Below, one piece after another: positions 29,278 through 41,143 of a stretch of 56,674 bases of DNA. Position 1 is the first letter of the stretch. The number at the start of each line of letters is the position of its first letter. Origin of the DNA: a virus (lineage: Duplodnaviria > Caudoviricetes); the IMG/VR virus record IMGVR_UViG_3300037826_000110, positions 1 to 56,674 of that record. One strand, written 5' to 3'. Under the pieces are notes generated by a model, which was not told the DNA's origin, ran no database searches, and saw only the letters and a program-made list of their open reading frames with translations. The position numbers were made by a program, and so were the translations under genes.

Positions 29278-30036
29278 TTAAGTTGTTATCCCAATACTTC
29301 GCGCACTGCCCGCCATCAAATCCAGATACGTCGCGTAGATATCCAGGTCGTGCGACATCACCAAGCGATACACGTACTGCGCGGCATACGTAGCCACCGC
29401 CTGATTGATCATCAAGCTCTGCGCATCCCGTATAGTCAGCTCCGCGCAGGACTCGGCCTCCGTCGCTGGCTGATCGGGAACCAAGAGCTCCGGATGCTGC
29501 ACGGTGGGGAGGGGAAGATCCAGACAGTGCCCGGCCTCGATGCTGGGCAATTTGCTGTTGGTCGTGTTCCCCAGTAGGACCTGACCGCTGGCCTCGTGGT
29601 TACCGCAGTCCAACCACCAGACGAGCCGCGAGGAATCGACGATGGCCTCGTGAATGGCCTTCCGGGCGGCAGCGTTATCCACCGCGCCCACGACCAGCGT
29701 GAACTGGTGACGCTTGGCGGTGATAAAGTCTGACTGGAATTTCTGCGGACGACACTGAATCCGCAGGCCGAAAGCCGTGCTGTACCGGCGTGTCAATGCG
29801 ACGGCCTTGTTACGTCCTATCTCGGCGGGGGCGAAGTTCTGCCGTCCGATGTTCTTTTCCTCCACGACGTCGGGATCGCAGAAGGACAACCGAACGTCTT
29901 TGCCCTGCGCGTGATAGGCCAGGCGCGCTAGGTGCAAAGCCAGGAATGAGCCGGTCCCTCCGCAACCCACCAGGAGGATATTGTACGCGGCGGGATCCCC
30001 GACTAGGACAGGGTAGCGTCTCTCCGGCCTATCCAC
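29278..30036 (-). CDS. ThiF/E1-like activating enzyme (PRTRC type)
   Basis: VGCGGTGS, D.D.VE..N..RQ, NKA, GAVDN..AR, WLDCGN, SCAE catalytic Cys, QSL.IN. Confidence 0.9.
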   Translation of the reverse strand: MDRPERRYPVLVGDPAAYNILLVGCGGTGSFLALHLARLAYHAQGKDVRLSFCDPDVVEEKNIGRQNFAPAEIGRNKAVALTRRYSTAFGLRIQCRPQKFQSDFITAKRHQFTLVVGAVDNAAARKAIHEAIVDSSRLVWWLDCGNHEASGQVLLGNTTNSKLPSIEAGHCLDLPLPTVQHPELLVPDQPATEAESCAELTIRDAQSLMINQAVATYAAQYVYRLVMSHDLDIYATYLDLMAGSARSIGITT

Positions 30037-30256
30037 GCCGCGCCTCCCGCTCGGCCTGCAATCGGGCACGCTCCTGATCTACTACGCGCCATAGGTCGCG
30101 GACCTCTTTCTGCAATGCGCGCGCCTGCACGGCCAACTCGTCGAAACGCTGGCGTATCTCATCATCGCGACCGCCAAGGCGAACGACGGAGCGAATGTAA
30201 TAATCCAACGTACCCAAATCTATGTACGGATACGTGTTGTCATCTGGGTTTTGCAT
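30029..30256 (-). CDS. Hypothetical coiled-coil protein
   Basis: SD, 75 aa. Confidence 0.6.
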   Translation of the reverse strand: MQNPDDNTYPYIDLGTLDYYIRSVVRLGGRDDEIRQRFDELAVQARALQKEVRDLWRVVDQERARLQAEREARRG

Positions 30257-30264
30257 GGTTCCTC

Positions 30265-30882
30265 CTAAAACGGAATAGTGCGATTATGGACATCCTCAAA
30301 TGGCCATGCCCCGGTGAACAGTGTCTCAATAGCTACATTACCGTAGTCACCGTAGACACCCACCCGCAGACACATCTGCGGGCGCTCGTCGAAGATCCGC
30401 CCGATCACACCATAGAAACGCAAGCCTTGCTCGTCGCGGGTATCCTCGCTGGAAAAGAAAACGTTCATCTGGTGATGGCTGTGGATGTCGGCGATGATGT
30501 CCGCGTCATCGCCTCCCTCGTAGGTCAGGCGCGCACTGCCGGCCTGTTGCGACGGTCGCCACACGCTGACCAAGCCGTCACGCAGCACGAGGTGATACAG
30601 AACCTCACGCGGCCCCTCGCGGGCCACGCTGCGCGCGTTGACCAGGATCTGACGCAAGAGAATGTTTTGGATGGGGCTGAAGTCTAAGTCCACAAACGGC
30701 TCTAGCTTCGGCAGTCCAGCCACGCGACACGCCGCGACCTGAATGCAGGCGGTGAAGTGCCGCGCGCGGGCTAACTTGAAGATGCCATTGCCCGCGAGCA
30801 CGTAGGCGTAGGCTTTCCCCGACGACAAGCTCGGGGTATGGCCATTATGCATCAGATAATCTACGGGATTCGGTAACATCAT
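30265..30882 (-). CDS. JAB/MPN peptidase (PRTRC protein A-like)
   Basis: E...DIHSH...FFS..D..DE.G.R.Y.V.G, R.G.YG. Confidence 0.88.
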   Translation of the reverse strand: MMLPNPVDYLMHNGHTPSLSSGKAYAYVLAGNGIFKLARARHFTACIQVAACRVAGLPKLEPFVDLDFSPIQNILLRQILVNARSVAREGPREVLYHLVLRDGLVSVWRPSQQAGSARLTYEGGDDADIIADIHSHHQMNVFFSSEDTRDEQGLRFYGVIGRIFDERPQMCLRVGVYGDYGNVAIETLFTGAWPFEDVHNRTIPF

Positions 30883-31583
30883 GCCTCCCATAAGTGCCGA
30901 AGGGCCAGGTTACTATGTCTCAGGTCTTCAAGGGGATATTCATCCGCACCGACCACGACAGGATCGCGCCACATCGCGATGATGCTCTCCTCGTATTTCT
31001 TGGATTTGCCGTCTTCCAAGTCGTGATTGAACTGGCTAGCGAAGAACATTTCCGCAGCCTCACAAATCGTTTCCACCGTGCAAGCCGGGAACGGGACATC
31101 CCCCTGGCACACACGTCCGTCGCGCCAGATGTTTGGCGCGGGGAAATAGTACAGTGGTTCCCGTCCGGCTGCGGGGTAACGCCGGACCGCGAAGATCCTG
31201 TACGTGCGACCCTGCCCTACGAAAACGGCCGGTGGGAAGGGTACACGCATGTCCACCACTTCACCCTCATGGTACAGCTTCACCGTGCGCACCTGGGGAG
31301 GGCGATATATACCCAAACGCGGTTGTGCCCCCAGATCACAAAACAGGCAATTGCGGGGCAGCAACCCCGACACTATCGGCAGCCCGGCCATCGAGGCCGC
31401 CAGAGCATCCGGCGATACCTCGTAGCACTGCGCGACGTGCCCATGCTCAAAGCGCGTCATCACGATGGACTCGTCGTACAGGTCCAGGCGCATGCGCAGC
31501 GCCTGGCGTTGCTCTACGTCCACCCCGGTCCCTGCGAGACCCAAGGCAGATAGGTGTTCTATTTTTCCATTTTCTGGTTCCAT
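30879..31583 (-). CDS. Prokaryotic E2-like protein (PRTRC protein B-like)
   Basis: P.PP.VF, LY..P.PN....G.VC.G, FF.S.F.H. Confidence 0.85.
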   Translation of the reverse strand: MEPENGKIEHLSALGLAGTGVDVEQRQALRMRLDLYDESIVMTRFEHGHVAQCYEVSPDALAASMAGLPIVSGLLPRNCLFCDLGAQPRLGIYRPPQVRTVKLYHEGEVVDMRVPFPPAVFVGQGRTYRIFAVRRYPAAGREPLYYFPAPNIWRDGRVCQGDVPFPACTVETICEAAEMFFASQFNHDLEDGKSKKYEESIIAMWRDPVVVGADEYPLEDLRHSNLALRHLWEA

Positions 31584-31588
31584 TTTAT

Positions 31589-32473
31589 TTACTCCTCATA
31601 CGTTCGCTCTATCTGATACCGTCTGACGTCGTCAACCCACTCTTGCTCCACCAACGGCGGGGCGGGGGTACGATTGCGATAGTCCTCCTCCAGGCCGTCG
31701 AAGTAGCGCACCGCGTCCTCCACAGCGCGCCGAGGCTGTTCGTCGAAATACTCTTGCAGATCGCGACGTACAGGGACCCAGTGCTTGATCTCGCTGTAAG
31801 AGGTGGCCAAAAAGAGGATGTCGTGCAGATTGAATCTCGGCATCCCATAGTTCATACTGCCATACTCCTCAAAGTAGTAATCGCAGTAGTCAAACCACGG
31901 GTTGCCGGTTTCCTTGCGCACACACTGATACACCACGGCCAGGGCGCTGAAGGGCTGCGGCAGGGCCTCCAAATGCTCCACTGCCCATACCGCGTCGCTG
32001 GGCCAGGTGTACTGTCGCGGGGGGCGGATACCATGTGCCCCCCACCACTCTATGAGTCGCTCGCTGTACGAATCTACCCCCTCACAGACGTGGTTAATAA
32101 CGACGGCGATCATTAGGCAGGCCAGGGTGTCGAAGTTGCTGAAGTCCTCGACTTCCCACTCGATGCCCCACGCTGCGAAGGGAATCTCGTGCCAACCCTC
32201 CACCAGTGTCGGATGGTCGAACTCGCGCTCGTAGACCAGGTAATCGGCATACAAGCCGTTAAGCGGGAAGAACTCCTGATTGATACGAACCAGAAGCTCC
32301 TGCTCGGCAGCCTGCAAGCCCCCCAACACCGGGAGCTCATCGCCGAATAGCTCGCGCCACAGCTCGGCCATATTATGATACTCCTTATAGCCCCCCAGAC
32401 GGTCAGCGATCGCCCCGTAGGACGGCAGGCGATAGCGAGTCAAAGCCTGGACGACGGCTTGCAGAGAAATCAT
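31589..32473 (-). CDS. Helical acidic protein in PRTRC cassette (possible protein F equivalent)
   Basis: Position upstream of E2; FPL and TGNPW.D motifs. Confidence 0.6.
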   Translation of the reverse strand: MISLQAVVQALTRYRLPSYGAIADRLGGYKEYHNMAELWRELFGDELPVLGGLQAAEQELLVRINQEFFPLNGLYADYLVYEREFDHPTLVEGWHEIPFAAWGIEWEVEDFSNFDTLACLMIAVVINHVCEGVDSYSERLIEWWGAHGIRPPRQYTWPSDAVWAVEHLEALPQPFSALAVVYQCVRKETGNPWFDYCDYYFEEYGSMNYGMPRFNLHDILFLATSYSEIKHWVPVRRDLQEYFDEQPRRAVEDAVRYFDGLEEDYRNRTPAPPLVEQEWVDDVRRYQIERTYEE

Positions 32474-32682
32474 GCTTCGCTGTCCAGGTCGAATAGCTCT
32501 GGCTGGCCCTGCCGTCGCATGATCCAGGCTTTCGGTATCGGTTGCGTGTGCCGACACTGTGGGAAGTTAGGGCAGCCCAAAAACTGAGAGTGGTTGTGGC
32601 GGTTGGTTTTGATGAGCAAGGGGACGTTGCACTCTGGGCAACGGAGTGCGGTGGGCTGGTTGTTCTCAAATAGCGGTTCCAT
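32470..32682 (-). CDS. Topoisomerase-type C4 zinc-ribbon protein
   Basis: CPEC...L....N......FLGC.NFP.CR.T. Confidence 0.8.
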   Translation of the reverse strand: MEPLFENNQPTALRCPECNVPLLIKTNRHNHSQFLGCPNFPQCRHTQPIPKAWIMRRQGQPELFDLDSEA

Positions 32683-33145
32683 CGCCCTCTCCAAAATGCT
32701 CGGCGTGCAGGCGTGACACATCCTGCTCCAAATTGTAACGCAGATCCTCGATGCGCCGCTGACACTCATAGTCCGCATCATCGACCACGCCGGCGCGCTC
32801 CTCCAGGATTGCATACAGATTTAGGTTATAAAGCCGGCGCAAGTCCTCGTACTCTCTGAGATACAAGAGTACGTCCAACGCCTTCCCCAAAAGGGCTGAC
32901 GCATCGACCGCCAGATGCTCCACATTCGTACCGGTTCCTAGATTGGCCAAAGCCTGCATGTCCGTGATCACCTGGTTGATCACGGCCTCCGGTTCAGCCT
33001 CGGTGCTGGCGATCACCGGACCCAACGCTTCAATGGCGTGCCGTGCCATCTGCCCAATCTCTGGCGGTGGGTTGGTGGCCATAGTGATCACGGCCATTTT
33101 CTGGCTGGCCTGGCCCACAAGGTCTGAGAGCCTATGCCGATCCAT
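32666..33145 (-). CDS. Hypothetical protein
   Basis: Coupled ORF, 159 aa. Confidence 0.65.
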   Translation of the reverse strand: MDRHRLSDLVGQASQKMAVITMATNPPPEIGQMARHAIEALGPVIASTEAEPEAVINQVITDMQALANLGTGTNVEHLAVDASALLGKALDVLLYLREYEDLRRLYNLNLYAILEERAGVVDDADYECQRRIEDLRYNLEQDVSRLHAEHFGEGDGTAI

Positions 33146-33434
33146 TCAGCACCCCCAGAGCCTTCAGTAATAGCGCCTCGGCCTCGATCACGTTGGTCTC
33201 GATACACGTACCCTCGCCGTGAATCTCCATCGCCGCGAGGCCGTTCAACGCCTCGCGTACCGCAACGGTGATCTCGCCGTCGCTCATCGACGCCCGCCCG
33301 CCATTCAACAGTGGGGATAGTGACGCGGTTACGTCCGCCGCCATGCCCCACAGAATATAGCTGGGACTCACATGCAGCAGTGGCCCCACCCTTAAATTTG
33401 CTCTGATCAACAATGCCTCTACTTGTTGCTCCAT
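33132..33434 (-). CDS. Hypothetical protein
   Basis: SD, 100 aa. Confidence 0.6.
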   Translation of the reverse strand: MEQQVEALLIRANLRVGPLLHVSPSYILWGMAADVTASLSPLLNGGRASMSDGEITVAVREALNGLAAMEIHGEGTCIETNVIEAEALLLKALGVLNGSA

Positions 33435-33443
33435 AGTGTTCTC

Positions 33444-33677
33444 CTAAAATCCTTCTGGCACCCGCTTACCGGGCACCGGGTCCAAAGCTTCCAGACGCTC
33501 ACGAAACTTCTCCACGGCTTCAATATGTGCGTAGAGGTCCAGGAGCGCCCGTTCTATCTCCGCCTGGCGCTGGGCGACATCCGCCCCGGCCTCCAGGTCC
33601 AGCAGGAGCCGGACGGCGGCGAGCTCCAACGGGGGAACCTCCGCCATCCGCTCCGCAAGCTCACGCGCCGTCGTCAT
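33444..33677 (-). CDS. Hypothetical helical protein
   Basis: Start reassigned to ATG 33677, overlapping the upstream ORF end. Confidence 0.6.
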   Translation of the reverse strand: MTTARELAERMAEVPPLELAAVRLLLDLEAGADVAQRQAEIERALLDLYAHIEAVEKFRERLEALDPVPGKRVPEGF

Positions 33678-34113
33678 CCGGGATAACCGGGCCGTGCTGC
33701 TCGAGGGCCGCGACGCAGAGAGCGGCCATTTTGACAATGCGATACCGTGCTCTGCTAAGTTCTTCAGCGCCAATATCTTGTGAAGCATGCCCCCATTCCT
33801 CAGCGATATAATCCAGCCACACGCTGGGACCATGGCGTTTTCCGTCAATCTCACCGTTTAACGTCATGCGTTCTTGCACGTTGCAGATTGCCGCTAGCAC
33901 ATTGGCGCGGCTGACCAACGCACCCTTGGTCCCCGCACGCTTGACGAAGGTAACCACCTTGTTACCTTCGTCGTCCTCGCTCTCCTCGACGCTGGCGTTA
34001 GCCAGCTCCGGAAAGTATTGGCGCAGGTGATCCTGCATCTGCTGCGTTGTAAGCTCGTCTTCCTCGTCCCGATATTCATAGTCCCCGTGGGGATATTTGT
34101 AAATCGTTGCCAT
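33661..34113 (-). CDS. Ubiquitin-like protein (PRTRC protein C-like) fused to a MazG-like helical domain
   Basis: YFPELANA...V.F.KRAGTKG at residue 64, then in frame EEWG...IVKMAALCVA. Confidence 0.78.
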   Translation of the reverse strand: MATIYKYPHGDYEYRDEEDELTTQQMQDHLRQYFPELANASVEESEDDEGNKVVTFVKRAGTKGALVSRANVLAAICNVQERMTLNGEIDGKRHGPSVWLDYIAEEWGHASQDIGAEELSRARYRIVKMAALCVAALEQHGPVIPDDDGA

Positions 34114-34144: not shown

Positions 34145-35614
34145 TCACGCCGGGGCGCGATCTTCCTCAGATTCCTGCTCAAATATATCAATGCCTATTT
34201 CCTCGCGGATCATTCTAGCCATCACCGAGGCCAGGTGCCCTAGGTCACTCTTGTCTATGGCCCCGGGCCGTCCGGGCTTTCCCACCGAGACGGTGACCGC
34301 CAGATCCTCCGGGCTTTCCCCATTCTGGGGTACGTCGATGCGGGCCGTGAGAATAATTTGCGGCTTGGGGGGAGGCGGAGGGGGCACCGCTGGCCTTGAT
34401 GATGCCGGCGGCGGCGATTGGGGCTCACTCAGCGTCCCCACCGCAACCCCACACCGCGCGTTATTCGCAATCCCCGCATCCTGCGCCGCGTCCACCGGCG
34501 CGCTGGCTATGTGCTCCGGAGCCGATAACTCATGCTCTTCCGGCTGCGGATTGCCGGCGCGTTCCCAGCAATCGGGGCAGATGTTGATGCCCGCGAAGCG
34601 GTACCAATCGCGCTCTTTGTCGTTGGCGACCTCGGTACCGCAGGCGCGGCAGCGGGTCCAGAACGTCGGGCGGTGCGTTTTCCACCCGGCGTGCTGCTCG
34701 TACATGCGCTTGGCCAACGCTGGTCCTTCGACCTGCTTCTCGAAGGTCGTGCTCTTGAGCTCAAAGCACGTCCGCCAAGAGCAGCGCAACTCCCGACCGA
34801 TCTTTGTCGCATACCGGCATCCCGCGCAGGCATGCATGATGCCGTTGCCGGGGACCTGGGGTTTCATCTCTGGCTCCCAGTCCATGGCCCACGGTGCACC
34901 ATCGAGGGAGGCCGTCTCCGTCTCGATGTGGCGCTTGACGGCCATCTCCACGTCGACCACGCTGCGCTCATGGCCCAGGAGACGCATGTACGTGGGCTTT
35001 TCCTCACCAAGGGCCACCAGGGGTAGCAGTGCCCGGGCGTGCCGTTCGCCCAGACCCCGCGCCACCTCATCCTGGATGAAGTCGGGGAGTTGCAGGAGGC
35101 GCAGTTTGTTGGCTACGGTGCTCTGACTGAGGCCCCAGCGGTTGCCGATCTCCGCCTGGGTCCAGCCAAATTTTTCCCCCGCCATCTGCATCATGCGCGC
35201 CTGCTCGATAGCGTTGTTGTCCTCGCGCTCTTGATTTTCCTGGAAGGCGATGTCGGCCATGGCCTCGTCGTCCAGTGCCTTGAGGTCGACGGGGAACGTG
35301 GCGTATGTGGTGTCGCTCTGCGCGCTGAAGGTCTCGTGAATCAGTCGGAAGGCGCGCAGACGCCGATGGCCGGCGGCCAGTTGGATCTCCAGCCCTTCAC
35401 GACGGCCGTCCTCGATCCGCGCCACGGCCTCGGCGGGATCCAGGACCTCGCCGTTCAATAGCGCCCGCGCCGGGGGGACGTGGATTAGGCCGCTGGTTTC
35501 GGGAAGCTCGTGGCGCATTTGTAAAATTGAGTTCTCCAGGTCGGCGGTGTAGTACTTCATCCGCGCCTGGAATGGATTGTCACTGATCATCTTATTTGCT
35601 ACTCTGGTAATCAT
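34145..35614 (-). CDS. ParB-family CTPase with Noc-type HTH and Cys-rich C-terminal domains (PRTRC ParB)
   Basis: NPFQAR, AGHRRLRA, EN..RED, GLSQSTVANKLRLLQLP...ERHARALLPL. Confidence 0.88.
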   Translation of the reverse strand: MITRVANKMISDNPFQARMKYYTADLENSILQMRHELPETSGLIHVPPARALLNGEVLDPAEAVARIEDGRREGLEIQLAAGHRRLRAFRLIHETFSAQSDTTYATFPVDLKALDDEAMADIAFQENQEREDNNAIEQARMMQMAGEKFGWTQAEIGNRWGLSQSTVANKLRLLQLPDFIQDEVARGLGERHARALLPLVALGEEKPTYMRLLGHERSVVDVEMAVKRHIETETASLDGAPWAMDWEPEMKPQVPGNGIMHACAGCRYATKIGRELRCSWRTCFELKSTTFEKQVEGPALAKRMYEQHAGWKTHRPTFWTRCRACGTEVANDKERDWYRFAGINICPDCWERAGNPQPEEHELSAPEHIASAPVDAAQDAGIANNARCGVAVGTLSEPQSPPPASSRPAVPPPPPPKPQIILTARIDVPQNGESPEDLAVTVSVGKPGRPGAIDKSDLGHLASVMARMIREEIGIDIFEQESEEDRAPA

Positions 35615-39694: not shown

Positions 39695-41143
39695 ATGAAA
39701 ATCACAGAAGCAACACCGCAGCAAAGAAACAACGCTCCCTTTGTGACGCATATGACTGCCAGGAACATCGGCAAGGGGTACGCCGAGACCCTAATACTAA
39801 TCGCCTACTATCTCCCGGACGGCGACGTCCTAGAGGGAACTAGCGAAGAATTCGGTGCAGTCTTCGACATTCACGAACGCAGCTTCAGGAATCATGTCAA
39901 GGCCCTATCACGAGCCGGATGCCTACTTTACACGAAACCAGAATACGGGCTATACAAAATCATAAGAATTTCACAGACAGAAGAGGAACTAAACACCCTC
40001 GTCGATTGCTGGAATTTCATTCCAGATGAGATCAAAAAGCGCGATGCGTTGGATTTTGTCACGTCTGCTTTCCTGTCGAAATGGAAAGAATTTTCCGAAA
40101 GTGGGGGGGAATGGAAAGAATTTTCCACCTTAGAGGAAGAGGCACCGGAAGCAAAACGGAAAGAATTTTCCGAAACTCCGCAAAATGGAAGAAATTTTCC
40201 AAGTTCAGACGAAGAGGAGCAAGGCGAGGAATGGAAAGAATTTTCCGAAAGTGGGGGAGAATGGAAAGAATTTTCCAACTCGGATGGCGAAAGACGGAAA
40301 GAATTTTCCGTAACCCCCATTGAACGGAAAAAAATTTCCGAAAGTGGGGGGAAACGGAAAGAATTTTCCGAAAGCGATCCCCCTGTTGTTGTTATTAATC
40401 ATGATCATGTCTTTGAGAGACAATTTTCTAAAGATAAAAAACAACAACAGCAAGCATCTGAGCCACAAAACGGCGATTCAGCGCAGGGGTTTGCGTCGAA
40501 CGATTTTTCCGAACGTCAAAAGCTTGCCTTGAATGCTCTGCGTTCCGTGCGTGTGGGTCGCAATGCACAGCGTGAATTCATACGCGACCATGATCCGCAG
40601 CGCATCCTAGACGTCGTTGCGGCGGCGAAGGTTGACGCAACCGTCAAAAACAAAGCGGGGTATGTGTGCAAGGCCCTCCGCGAAGGGTGGGAGATCGCGG
40701 TGCCGAAATCCGAGCCCGAGAAACGTCAGGAAAAATGGGCCGGATGGGAACAACAAAACGCCCAAGCCACCGCGCGCCTGCATCAAGCGGTCGCCGCTGC
40801 CGCCGAGCAATCCGGTAACGGCAACGGGGGCGAATCTGCCAAGATCTGGCGCGGCGTCCTGGGTGAACTGGAGCTCCAGATGACCCGCGCGACCTTCGAC
40901 ACCTGGCTGCGGGATACAAACTGCCTGGGTCGGGAGGATAACGGCGACGGTGAGACGCTGATCATCGGCGTGAAGAACGGCTACGCCGTGGAATGGCTAG
41001 AACATCGGCTGTACACCGTCATCCAACGCACACTCCACCGCGTCGTGGGGCAGCACACAGAGGCGCGCTTCGTTGTCTGGGATGAGGAAGCGCAGGAAGT
41101 CACAGAGCCGGCCTTGGAGCCGGTCACAGGAGGAGTAGGGTGA
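39695..41143 (+). CDS. Replication initiator: N-terminal HTH, iteron-encoded linker, C-terminal DnaA domain I
   Basis: IW..VL..L..QM..ATFDTWL..T...L.IGV.N.YA.EWLE.RL. Confidence 0.85.
   Translation: MKITEATPQQRNNAPFVTHMTARNIGKGYAETLILIAYYLPDGDVLEGTSEEFGAVFDIHERSFRNHVKALSRAGCLLYTKPEYGLYKIIRISQTEEELNTLVDCWNFIPDEIKKRDALDFVTSAFLSKWKEFSESGGEWKEFSTLEEEAPEAKRKEFSETPQNGRNFPSSDEEEQGEEWKEFSESGGEWKEFSNSDGERRKEFSVTPIERKKISESGGKRKEFSESDPPVVVINHDHVFERQFSKDKKQQQQASEPQNGDSAQGFASNDFSERQKLALNALRSVRVGRNAQREFIRDHDPQRILDVVAAAKVDATVKNKAGYVCKALREGWEIAVPKSEPEKRQEKWAGWEQQNAQATARLHQAVAAAAEQSGNGNGGESAKIWRGVLGELELQMTRATFDTWLRDTNCLGREDNGDGETLIIGVKNGYAVEWLEHRLYTVIQRTLHRVVGQHTEARFVVWDEEAQEVTEPALEPVTGGVG
40081..40369 (+). 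repeat. Replication origin iterons (9 x 16 bp)
   Basis: A(T/C)GGAAAGAATTTTCC at 40081, 40111, 40156, 40185, 40231, 40261, 40294, 40324 and 40354 (two are variants), followed by an AT-rich tract. Confidence 0.85.

Follow-up and report, generated by a model that had tools for sequence, protein, structure and literature searches.

Several prokaryotic systems make a ubiquitin-like protein (Ubl) or another beta-grasp protein as the front part of a larger precursor, and these are the closest described relatives of the element examined in this study, a Ubl fusion of 150 amino acids (aa) encoded on the minus strand of the phage genome IMGVR_UViG_3300037826_000110 (IMG/VR; Duplodnaviria, Caudoviricetes), which was analysed over its whole length of 56,674 nucleotides (nt), referred to here as the window. 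In type I Bub operons, the BubAB pre-protein (a Ubl-E2 fusion) is cleaved by the JAB domain of BubCD (PMC11601596): the JAB/JAMM enzyme of the same operon cuts directly after the glycine, which yields an activatable Ubl and a free second protein; in these operons the attached domain is in every case the E2 of the same pathway, and the JAB is fused to the E1. In Bil operons, BilC pre-processes BilA, which carries up to nine non-conserved residues past its glycine, and an artificial fusion of Ubl to GFP is also cut by BilC, so that a bulky leaving group can be accepted by JAB enzymes (10.1101/2023.09.26.559546). Among sulfur-carrier systems, MoaX of M. tuberculosis, a fused MoaD-MoaE, must be cleaved after Gly82 (PMC4326299), and the MoaD-MoaE fusion of D. 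radiodurans is cleaved by DRJAMM (PMC8832034); in both, a cut after the C-terminal glycine of the beta-grasp protein is needed for activity. Iyer and colleagues predicted in 2006 that JAB proteins of this kind both process and remove Ubl (PMC1779556).

As in BubAB, the phage gene specifies a bacterial-type Ubl translated together with a folded domain after a conserved glycine; as in BilA, the conserved glycine is followed by extra residues and a JAB gene lies in the same operon; and as in MoaX and the DRJAMM substrate, a beta-grasp protein is fused to a downstream protein. The combination that marks JAB-processed pre-proteins (a conserved glycine, extra residues after it, and a JAB with an intact JAMM motif in the operon) is present in the window. 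Unlike in Bub operons, the E2, JAB and E1 of the phage cassette are separate genes, the attached part is exchangeable (13 kinds) and MazG-like in the window, and the cassette is PRTRC-like and phage-borne, with cleavage predicted. Natural tails of BilA reach nine residues, whereas those of the phage family measure 33-240 residues in 14 of 28 related loci. The MoaD-MoaE systems differ in having one fixed partner, MoaE, and in lacking an E2, a variable slot and a phage setting. A first-pass annotation of this DNA, made by a model from the sequence alone, had likened the protein to eukaryotic ubiquitin fusions. In eukaryotic ubiquitin-ribosomal protein fusions and in polyubiquitin, the C-terminal partner of the precursor is released by a deubiquitinase; this precursor principle holds as a comparison, but the eukaryotic fusions involve another Ubl family, other peptidases and fixed partners and imply no homology of the tail, and BubAB, BilA and MoaX are closer, bacterial precedents.

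The explanation that best accounts for the data as a whole, with a probability of about 0.68, is that the 150-aa product would be the pro-form of the cassette's Ubl, that the JAB peptidase of the cassette would cleave it after Gly64, and that the window's tail is a captured, degenerate MazG-like domain occupying an exchange slot. That a Ubl pre-protein is cut by the JAB of its own operon is already known. New relative to the literature surveyed are the phage-borne PRTRC-like cassette, the exchangeable, domain-sized in-frame inserts after the Ubl glycine, and a MazG-like domain as one such insert. The existence of PRTRC-type cassettes (ParB, ThiF-like E1, E2, JAB and Ubl) was predicted some two decades ago on the basis of genome sequences, and neither a published tested function for them nor phage cassettes of this kind were found among the papers listed by the literature searches. 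The phage family offers a handle on PRTRC-type cassettes: a natural substrate, a fixed predicted cleavage site and a readable leaving group.

Authenticity of the Ubl fusion

The features that make up the fusion are as follows:
33661..34113, minus strand: pro-Ubl gene (Ubl domain plus 86-aa tail), 150 aa plus stop, ATG start
33922..34113, minus strand: Ubl domain, residues 1-64 (Prok_Ub / PRTRC_C type, beta-grasp; PF14454, TIGR03738)
33922..33933, minus strand: codons Gly61-Thr-Lys-Gly64, the invariant end of the Ubl, with the predicted processing site after Gly64
33664..33921, minus strand: tail, residues 65-150, with three predicted helices, apparently degenerate MazG-like (resembling all-alpha nucleoside triphosphate pyrophosphohydrolases)

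The pro-Ubl gene has a GGAGGA Shine-Dalgarno sequence 8 nt upstream of its ATG. The first-pass annotation had described an in-frame continuation of 86 aa beyond the expected Ubl terminus, and the 150-aa open reading frame (ORF) agrees with it: KRAGTKG occupies residues 58-64 and is followed by 86 in-frame residues, among them WLDYIAEEWG and IVKMAA. Such an arrangement could also arise if a sequencing or assembly error had erased a stop or shifted the frame after GTKG, in which case the tail would be a separate gene. An in-frame TTG (residue 66) and GTG (residue 72) just after an AAGGG resembling a ribosome-binding site (RBS) would suit a separate gene, and internal initiation at these codons could also yield some free tail; since no stop follows Gly64, initiation at the TTG would leave the fusion product in place.

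The stretch was found in five tidal-flat metagenome runs, four of which were compared, as contigs only and with no RNA run among them. A contig from run X1 that covers the whole stretch was left uncounted as support because it is possibly the window's own source. In run X2, a 273-nt contig (33887-34159) spans the Gly64 junction with 0 differences, and in run X3 an 858-nt contig (33422-34279) extends across the entire ORF, without gaps and with 19 substitutions, of which five lie inside the ORF, four of them synonymous and the fifth E18D. The stop or indel after GTKG that the first-pass annotation had named as refuting its precursor reading is present in neither contig (contigs, not reads). Both contigs, which come from two other samples, thus keep the frame with 0 gaps. 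In addition, the same Ubl-tail fusion occurs with identical architecture in two independent records, P0003 (150 aa, 99% identical) and P0004 (146 aa, 83% identical, from a metagenome-assembled genome (MAG) named candidate division KSB3 by its source), and long in-frame tails are found in 14 of the 28 related loci. The Ubl-tail fusion is confirmed as real, and the idea of an assembly error deserves next to no credence.

Compared to P0004, the tail is as conserved as the Ubl (69/83 and 53/63 identities, respectively). At the three codon positions, the tail has GC contents of 0.69/0.43/0.59, a high-low-high pattern seen in frame 0 only and shared with eight other phage genes, which range over 0.59-0.67, 0.40-0.47 and 0.68-0.77. 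The lower GC content of the tail at third codon positions (GC3, 0.59) is as might be expected for acquired DNA.

The Ubl domain and its terminal glycine

Residues 12-62 align with positions 14-64 of the 64 in Pfam Prok_Ub (PF14454) at 26.9 bits, meeting the cut-off of 25, and residues 15-64 align with positions 17-66 of the 66 in NCBIfam TIGR03738 (PRTRC_C) at 26.7 bits, missing the cut-off of 45.95. These profile matches indicate a diverged member of Prok_Ub / PRTRC_C, and a low-confidence AlphaFold2 (AF2) model gives the domain a strand-strand-helix-strand-strand pattern. Position 66 of 66 in TIGR03738 corresponds to Gly64, so the PRTRC_C profile ends exactly where the first-pass annotation had placed the Ubl terminus, at residue 64 in KRAGTKG, and 9 of the 28 related loci stop directly after AGTKG. 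Ending at the conserved glycine is a trait of PRTRC_C proteins that the window protein lacks as encoded and would show only after the predicted processing.

Residues T55-G64 are invariant in 12 of 12 aligned sequences (alignment A1), AGTKG is kept in all 28 related loci (motif [KR][KR]AGTKG), and P0014, a relative of 64 aa, has GTKG as its C-terminus. The group that E1 enzymes adenylate is a free C-terminal carboxylate. Because the E1 needs a free C-terminus and GTKG is invariant despite the tail, a tailed Ubl must be trimmed for use, and Gly64 would be freed before the E1-like enzyme adenylates the Ubl. In relatives with no tail or a 2-residue tail (L005, L006, L007, L013, L015, L016, L018, L022 and L025), the Lys-Gly codons of GTKG (AAR GGN) lie approximately 5-10 nt before the next ATG, where they resemble the ribosome-binding site of the next gene, so the invariant end of the Ubl may also be constrained at the DNA level.

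An exchange slot after the glycine

Searches with the Ubl pattern gave 28 related loci (7 viral, 1 in a Chloroflexota MAG and 20 metagenomic) with 22 distinct Ubl-plus-tail sequences. Besides the nine loci with an immediate stop after AGTKG, four continue for 2 residues, one for 9 residues and 14 for 33-240 residues. The 14 long tails were clustered together with those of ten tailed proteins from a length-restricted protein search and with the window's tail. These 25 tails of at least 25 aa, all in frame, fall into 13 blastp clusters with no similarity between clusters at E 1e-3; one cluster has five members, and two have three members that are not repeats of one sequence. One of the three-member clusters consists of a zinc-ribbon-like tail (CPxCG...CPHCG), in which L017 and L020 are 70% identical (nonsynonymous divergence, dN, 0.286; synonymous divergence, dS, 0.657). 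Together with the conservation relative to P0004 and the codon-position pattern of the window's tail, this speaks for constraint on the tails. Ten tails were scanned against families; none was above the Pfam cut-off, the best PHROG match had E 0.001, and the L017 tail gave weak hints of a zinc-ribbon type. The position after Gly64 is an exchange slot: it is empty, holds 2-9 residues or is filled by an insert of 33-240 residues, of which at least 13 unrelated kinds occur.

The downstream border of this slot is set by the next gene of the cassette:
33444..33677, minus strand: conserved 77-aa cassette protein ('dn78'), described by a hidden Markov model (HMM) from 6 members

The 'dn78' HMM matches 26 of the 28 loci, five of which supplied training sequences and 21 of which are independent. 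In all matched loci except L014, the 'dn78' start lies within -26 to +42 nt of the Ubl ORF's end, which leaves no room for a separate ORF between the two. The 'dn78' ATG overlaps the final 17 nt of the pro-Ubl ORF in the window, and an identical 14-nt overlap between tail and 'dn78' is found in ten loci (L001, L002, L003, L004, L008, L009, L011, L017, L019 and L020) that carry four unrelated tail kinds, which explains the acidic ...D-D-x-A endings common to unrelated tails. The shared overlap, which is 17 nt long in the window, suggests that recombination takes place between a pair of fixed flanks. In L014 (1508-1741), 'dn78' itself is read in frame straight after GTKG (HMM E 3.9e-8; pairwise E 5e-5 against the window copy). 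No family match was obtained for the 77-aa protein, whose C-terminal residues form a conserved ...R-V/I-P-x-G-F.

The same variety could be read more simply, with the tail as a removable cap or pro-peptide that keeps the Ubl inert and whose sequence matters little, so that the diversity would reflect weak constraint or arbitrary DNA at a recombination-prone junction. The tails are indeed unrelated and range from 2 to 240 aa, none reaches a curated Pfam cut-off (best PHROG E 0.001), dN/dS between L017 and L020 is higher in the tail (0.44) than in the Ubl (0.15), and the GC3 of the window's tail (0.59) lies below the 0.68-0.77 of the eight other phage genes. However, tail kinds persist in diverged backgrounds (the window and P0004 at 83% identity, L017 and L020 at 70%, and clusters of 3-5 members), homology of the window's tail to a free-standing family extends over the entire tail, as described below, and the L014 tail is a conserved cassette protein. 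A mere cap is consequently considered rather unlikely; if the tails are only caps, the family would show how a viral Ubl pathway stays inert until processed.

The exchange slot also admits a broader and more tentative proposal, in which Ubl and JAB would together act as a polyprotein device: accessory proteins would be inserted in frame without a start codon or RBS of their own and freed by the JAB, a viral counterpart of ubiquitin-fusion genes with polymorphic cargo. Among the inserts seen are a hydrophobic tail, one domain of MazG-like and one of zinc-ribbon-like type, and the 77-aa protein of the cassette itself.

Several further observations concern the distribution and nature of the tails. 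In runs X1-X3, other contigs match only 33923-33955, and their loose ends on the coding strand read a Gly codon, TAA and a nearby ATG, which indicates that tail-less relatives live in the same sediments. The 77-aa tail of P0005 is strongly hydrophobic and by eye resembles two membrane-spanning segments, so some tails may be membrane proteins. The same Ubl with an identical 33-aa tail is found in L008 (the Chloroflexota MAG) and in L003 and L011 (viral contig / metagenome contig), and P0011 comes from a MAG named Anaerolineae by its source; together with the KSB3 assignment of P0004, these are host hints only. A tblastn search with the 150-aa protein gave three weak matches to Bacillus phages (E 0.01-0.04), confined to the Ubl part.

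Identity of the window's tail

The first-pass annotation had recognised a resemblance of the tail to MazG-type enzymes, and this resemblance appears to reflect real but remote homology that is traced through stand-alone proteins. A phmmer search with the tail against 1.84 billion representative proteins (E up to 0.001) gave three matches, P0004 (9.2e-39), P0015 (2.1e-7) and P0016 (2.8e-4). The last of these (433 aa, matched in five short stretches) was discarded as a spurious, repetitive translation. P0015, a protein of 188 aa without a Ubl, is 45% identical over tail residues 5-78; it matches phrog_2831, a family of unknown function, at 5.9e-11 and Pfam PRA-PH at E 0.024, under the cut-off. 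When 301 genomes from the phylum to which the L008 genome belongs were searched with phrog_2831, five matches were obtained, including free-standing ORFs (open frames of 88-151 aa) such as the approximately 87-aa L031 protein. When the tail family (alignment A2) was compared to five stand-alone proteins (alignment A3) by hhalign, the two matched with a probability of 96.4% (E 1.1e-9) in an alignment of 73 columns that takes in residues 3-77 of the tail and the 87-aa protein from end to end; the tail alone against A3 gave 84.3% (E 7.2e-6). The stand-alone family in turn reaches 21.6 bits against Pfam MazG in two of its five members, at a cut-off of 22, and matches the PDB entries 2gta (YpjD; 6e-5) and 5ie9 ('nucleotide pyrophosphohydrolase'; 1.3e-4). 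A profile that includes the tail (A6) matches 2gta at 0.0045, 5ie9 at 0.0076, 2p06 at 0.21 and, sixth in the list, 1vmg at 0.92.

The stand-alone MazG-like set thus comprises the N-terminal domain of phrog_2831, the approximately 87-aa ORFs L030-L032 from Chloroflexota genomes, B. subtilis YpjD (2gta) and 5ie9. The whole tail aligns with these proteins (residues 3-77), the helix pattern agrees, and the ER and EE residues are kept. In contrast to the tail, the stand-alone proteins are free genes with their own start codons and carry EExxE together with ExxQ/D, whereas the window's tail reads EEWGH in place of EExxE and RIVK in place of ExxQ, has Lys at the Q/D position, begins without its own start codon and is joined to the Ubl. 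The tail would derive from the in-frame capture of a small MazG-like protein that stood alone in a phage or prophage.

The first-pass annotation went further and regarded the tail as a cargo enzyme, that is, as an active MazG-type nucleotide or alarmone pyrophosphohydrolase released by the JAB. The homology to a stand-alone family bordering MazG, the retained ERxx and EE parts of the motifs, and a conservation relative to P0004 that equals that of the Ubl are compatible with activity. The nearest Atlas clusters likewise include viral proteins with MazG or PRA-PH names (features 0.90-0.91; template modelling (TM) score 0.58-0.75), although all of them fall under the bar for naming; the neighbours are viral proteins of 80-110 aa that serve as leads only, and the Atlas's own model of the tail has TM scores of 0.73-0.79 to small viral proteins, under the bar for naming a family. 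Against activity stands the state of the motifs. MazG-type metal-binding motifs are EExxE and ExxD. The five Glu residues invariant in A3 (E13, E37, E38, E41 and E62) correspond to E, E, E, H and R in the window and to E, E, E, R and R in P0004, so by the usual reading of MazG motifs half of the metal-binding set would be gone. The Q/D position is Lys, also in the weak alignment to 2p06, while P0015, which is not a Ubl fusion, keeps all five Glu. Moreover, a Pfam scan of the tail alone gave no family at E up to 10, neither PF01503 nor phrog_2831 has a match in the window, and phrog_2831 reaches only E 0.064 against the tail. With His and Arg at two of five invariant Glu, an active enzyme is doubtful and the cargo-enzyme interpretation is judged unlikely; for the window's tail, a non-catalytic role in binding, dimerisation or capping is more likely than pyrophosphohydrolase activity.

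Other searches added little to this assignment. The structure search of residues 65-150 that the first-pass annotation had suggested yielded nothing specific: with the AF2 model of the tail (three helices; predicted local distance difference test (pLDDT) score 55.2, from the 3-row alignment A2), Foldseek gave one row at E 7.8 in the PDB and a best E of 3.9 in BFVD (viral), with none at E up to 0.001, and a wide VIA-align search gave generic helical matches only (Z up to 6.6). Single-sequence searches of the PDB with P0015 and P0001 gave 0 matches at E up to 10, as did the A2 profile; a word-index search with P0015 residues 95-188 found only P0015 itself; tblastn of P0015 against 50,697 phage records gave no match; A2 gave 17 pattern matches in viral contigs, none of them a relative; and phrog_2831 had no match in the four records behind the related loci.

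The JAB peptidase and predicted cleavage after Gly64

The predicted processing enzyme is encoded downstream in the same cassette:
30265..30891, minus strand: JAB/JAMM peptidase (PRTRC_A-like), predicted processing enzyme; Prok-JAB 25.6 bits (cut-off 25), TIGR03735 52.5 bits (cut-off 101.8)

Its JAMM motif is intact: all 12 aligned sequences keep E96, H137, S138, H139, S147 and D150. A JAB gene is present in 16 of the 28 related loci, six with tails of 0-9 aa and ten with long tails; the contigs of the remaining 12 stop short of its position. When the JAB (alignment A4) was modelled in complex with Ubl residues 1-75 (alignment A5), the score was 0.70, compared to 0.02 for the best of three controls. 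Of 80 solved complexes, 58 attain the mark used, as do 2 of 110 mismatched pairs; these counts apply only approximately here, because alignments made for the present analysis were used. The runs agree in at least 74% of contacts, the pLDDT of the partner is at least 75, and the confident interface joins JAB residues 96, 137, 139, 147 and 150 to Ubl residues 57-66.

Taken with the BubAB and BilA precedents, the intact motif and the complex model point to cleavage after Gly64. The JAB would cut the Gly64-Ala65 bond and so set free the 86-aa tail protein along with a Ubl competent for conjugation. The alternative is that no cleavage takes place and that an integral ubiquitin-like domain docks a variable C-terminal module onto the E1/E2/JAB machinery. 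Integral ubiquitin-like domains are well known within larger eukaryotic proteins, and the very short linker predicted here would be in line with such an arrangement. However, tail-less members that end at the glycine are common (9 of 28 loci, plus P0014), GTKG is invariant in tailed members, as expected if a free glycine is needed, the JAB motif is intact in tailed cassettes, and the model places the Gly64 region on the active-site residues of the JAB. A permanently fused Ubl is hence thought very improbable.

It is also important to note several points that weigh against JAB processing of a MazG-like pro-Ubl. The favourable complex score may stem from resemblance to JAB-Ubl complexes of solved structure and not from this particular pair, the complex was modelled with only 11 tail residues and not with the folded tail, and the first tail helix is predicted 2-5 residues past Gly64, which leaves little linker for a peptidase. 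Conjugation by a PRTRC-type cassette is itself assumed, and the JAB, E2, Ubl and ParB proteins all lie under the NCBIfam PRTRC cut-offs. As to the tail, the link to MazG runs through intermediates with matches just under or near thresholds, the loss of motif residues suggests inactivity without proving it, the AF2 models are of low confidence (pLDDT 48.7 for the whole protein, made with no alignment, and 55.2 for the tail), and the fold searches were unspecific.

If the JAB does release the tails, there are several potential implications. Processing of Ubl precursors, shown for fixed partners (E2 in Bub, MoaE in MoaX), could carry exchangeable cargo, and complete Ubl pathways would be run by phages, beyond bacterial defence islands. 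In addition, JAB enzymes of this family would accept very different leaving groups, which might find use in tag-removal tools.

Cassette and genome context

The window is a complete virus record with direct terminal repeats, and its genes for a tape measure protein, a major head protein, a portal and a large terminase identify it as a tailed phage. On the minus strand, the cassette runs in the order ParB-like protein, Ubl fusion, 77-aa protein, three small ORFs, 322-aa protein, E2, JAB, a 75-aa ORF and E1. The components introduced here for the first time are as follows:
34145..35614, minus strand: ParB-like protein; HTH_ParB 8.1e-20, TIGR00180 71.7 bits (cut-off 58.45, passed)
31589..32557, minus strand: conserved 322-aa cassette protein; tblastn matches in 22 of 28 loci, between Ubl and E2
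30879..31583, minus strand: E2-like protein (Prok-E2_D / PRTRC_B-like); PF14460 75.1 bits (cut-off 25), TIGR03737 68.6 bits (cut-off 131.45)
29278..30069, minus strand: E1-like adenylating enzyme (PRTRC ThiF family); TIGR03736 172.9 bits (cut-off 144.75, passed), PF00899 63.5 bits

The ParB-like gene lies directly upstream of the pro-Ubl gene and is syntenic in 19 of the 28 related loci, and the order ParB, Ubl, 77-aa protein, 322-aa protein, E2, JAB and E1 is kept wherever contigs are long enough. Among the NCBIfam PRTRC models, ThiF alone passes its cut-off (A 52.5 of 101.8, B 68.6 of 131.45, C 26.7 of 45.95 and ParB 29.7 of 278.6 bits). Since the E1 is the sole component above its cut-off, the cassette is termed PRTRC-like rather than a curated member. 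The 322-aa protein has no Pfam or NCBIfam match, and no NCBIfam model matches the ORFs at 33132-33434, 32666-33145 and 31589-32557 at E up to 0.1, so that PRTRC protein E or F was not found among them. A PADLOC scan of the cassette matched the E1 alone, through the generic E1 parts of the Cap2-type and BilD models (BilD weakly, E 6.7e-6); with the match limited to a generic E1, the cassette is none of the defence systems in that library.

Between the genes for the 77-aa and 322-aa proteins, the region 32470-33434 on the minus strand holds three ORFs (100 aa, 159 aa and 114 aa) with no tblastn match in any of the 28 related loci, and this region is a second variable region of the cassette. The 114-aa ORF contains a zinc-ribbon-like motif (CPECN...CPNFPQC). 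Elsewhere in the genome and on the opposite strand, an ORF of 482 aa (39695-41143, plus strand), for which PHROG gave no match, carries many EWKEFSESGG-like repeat units.

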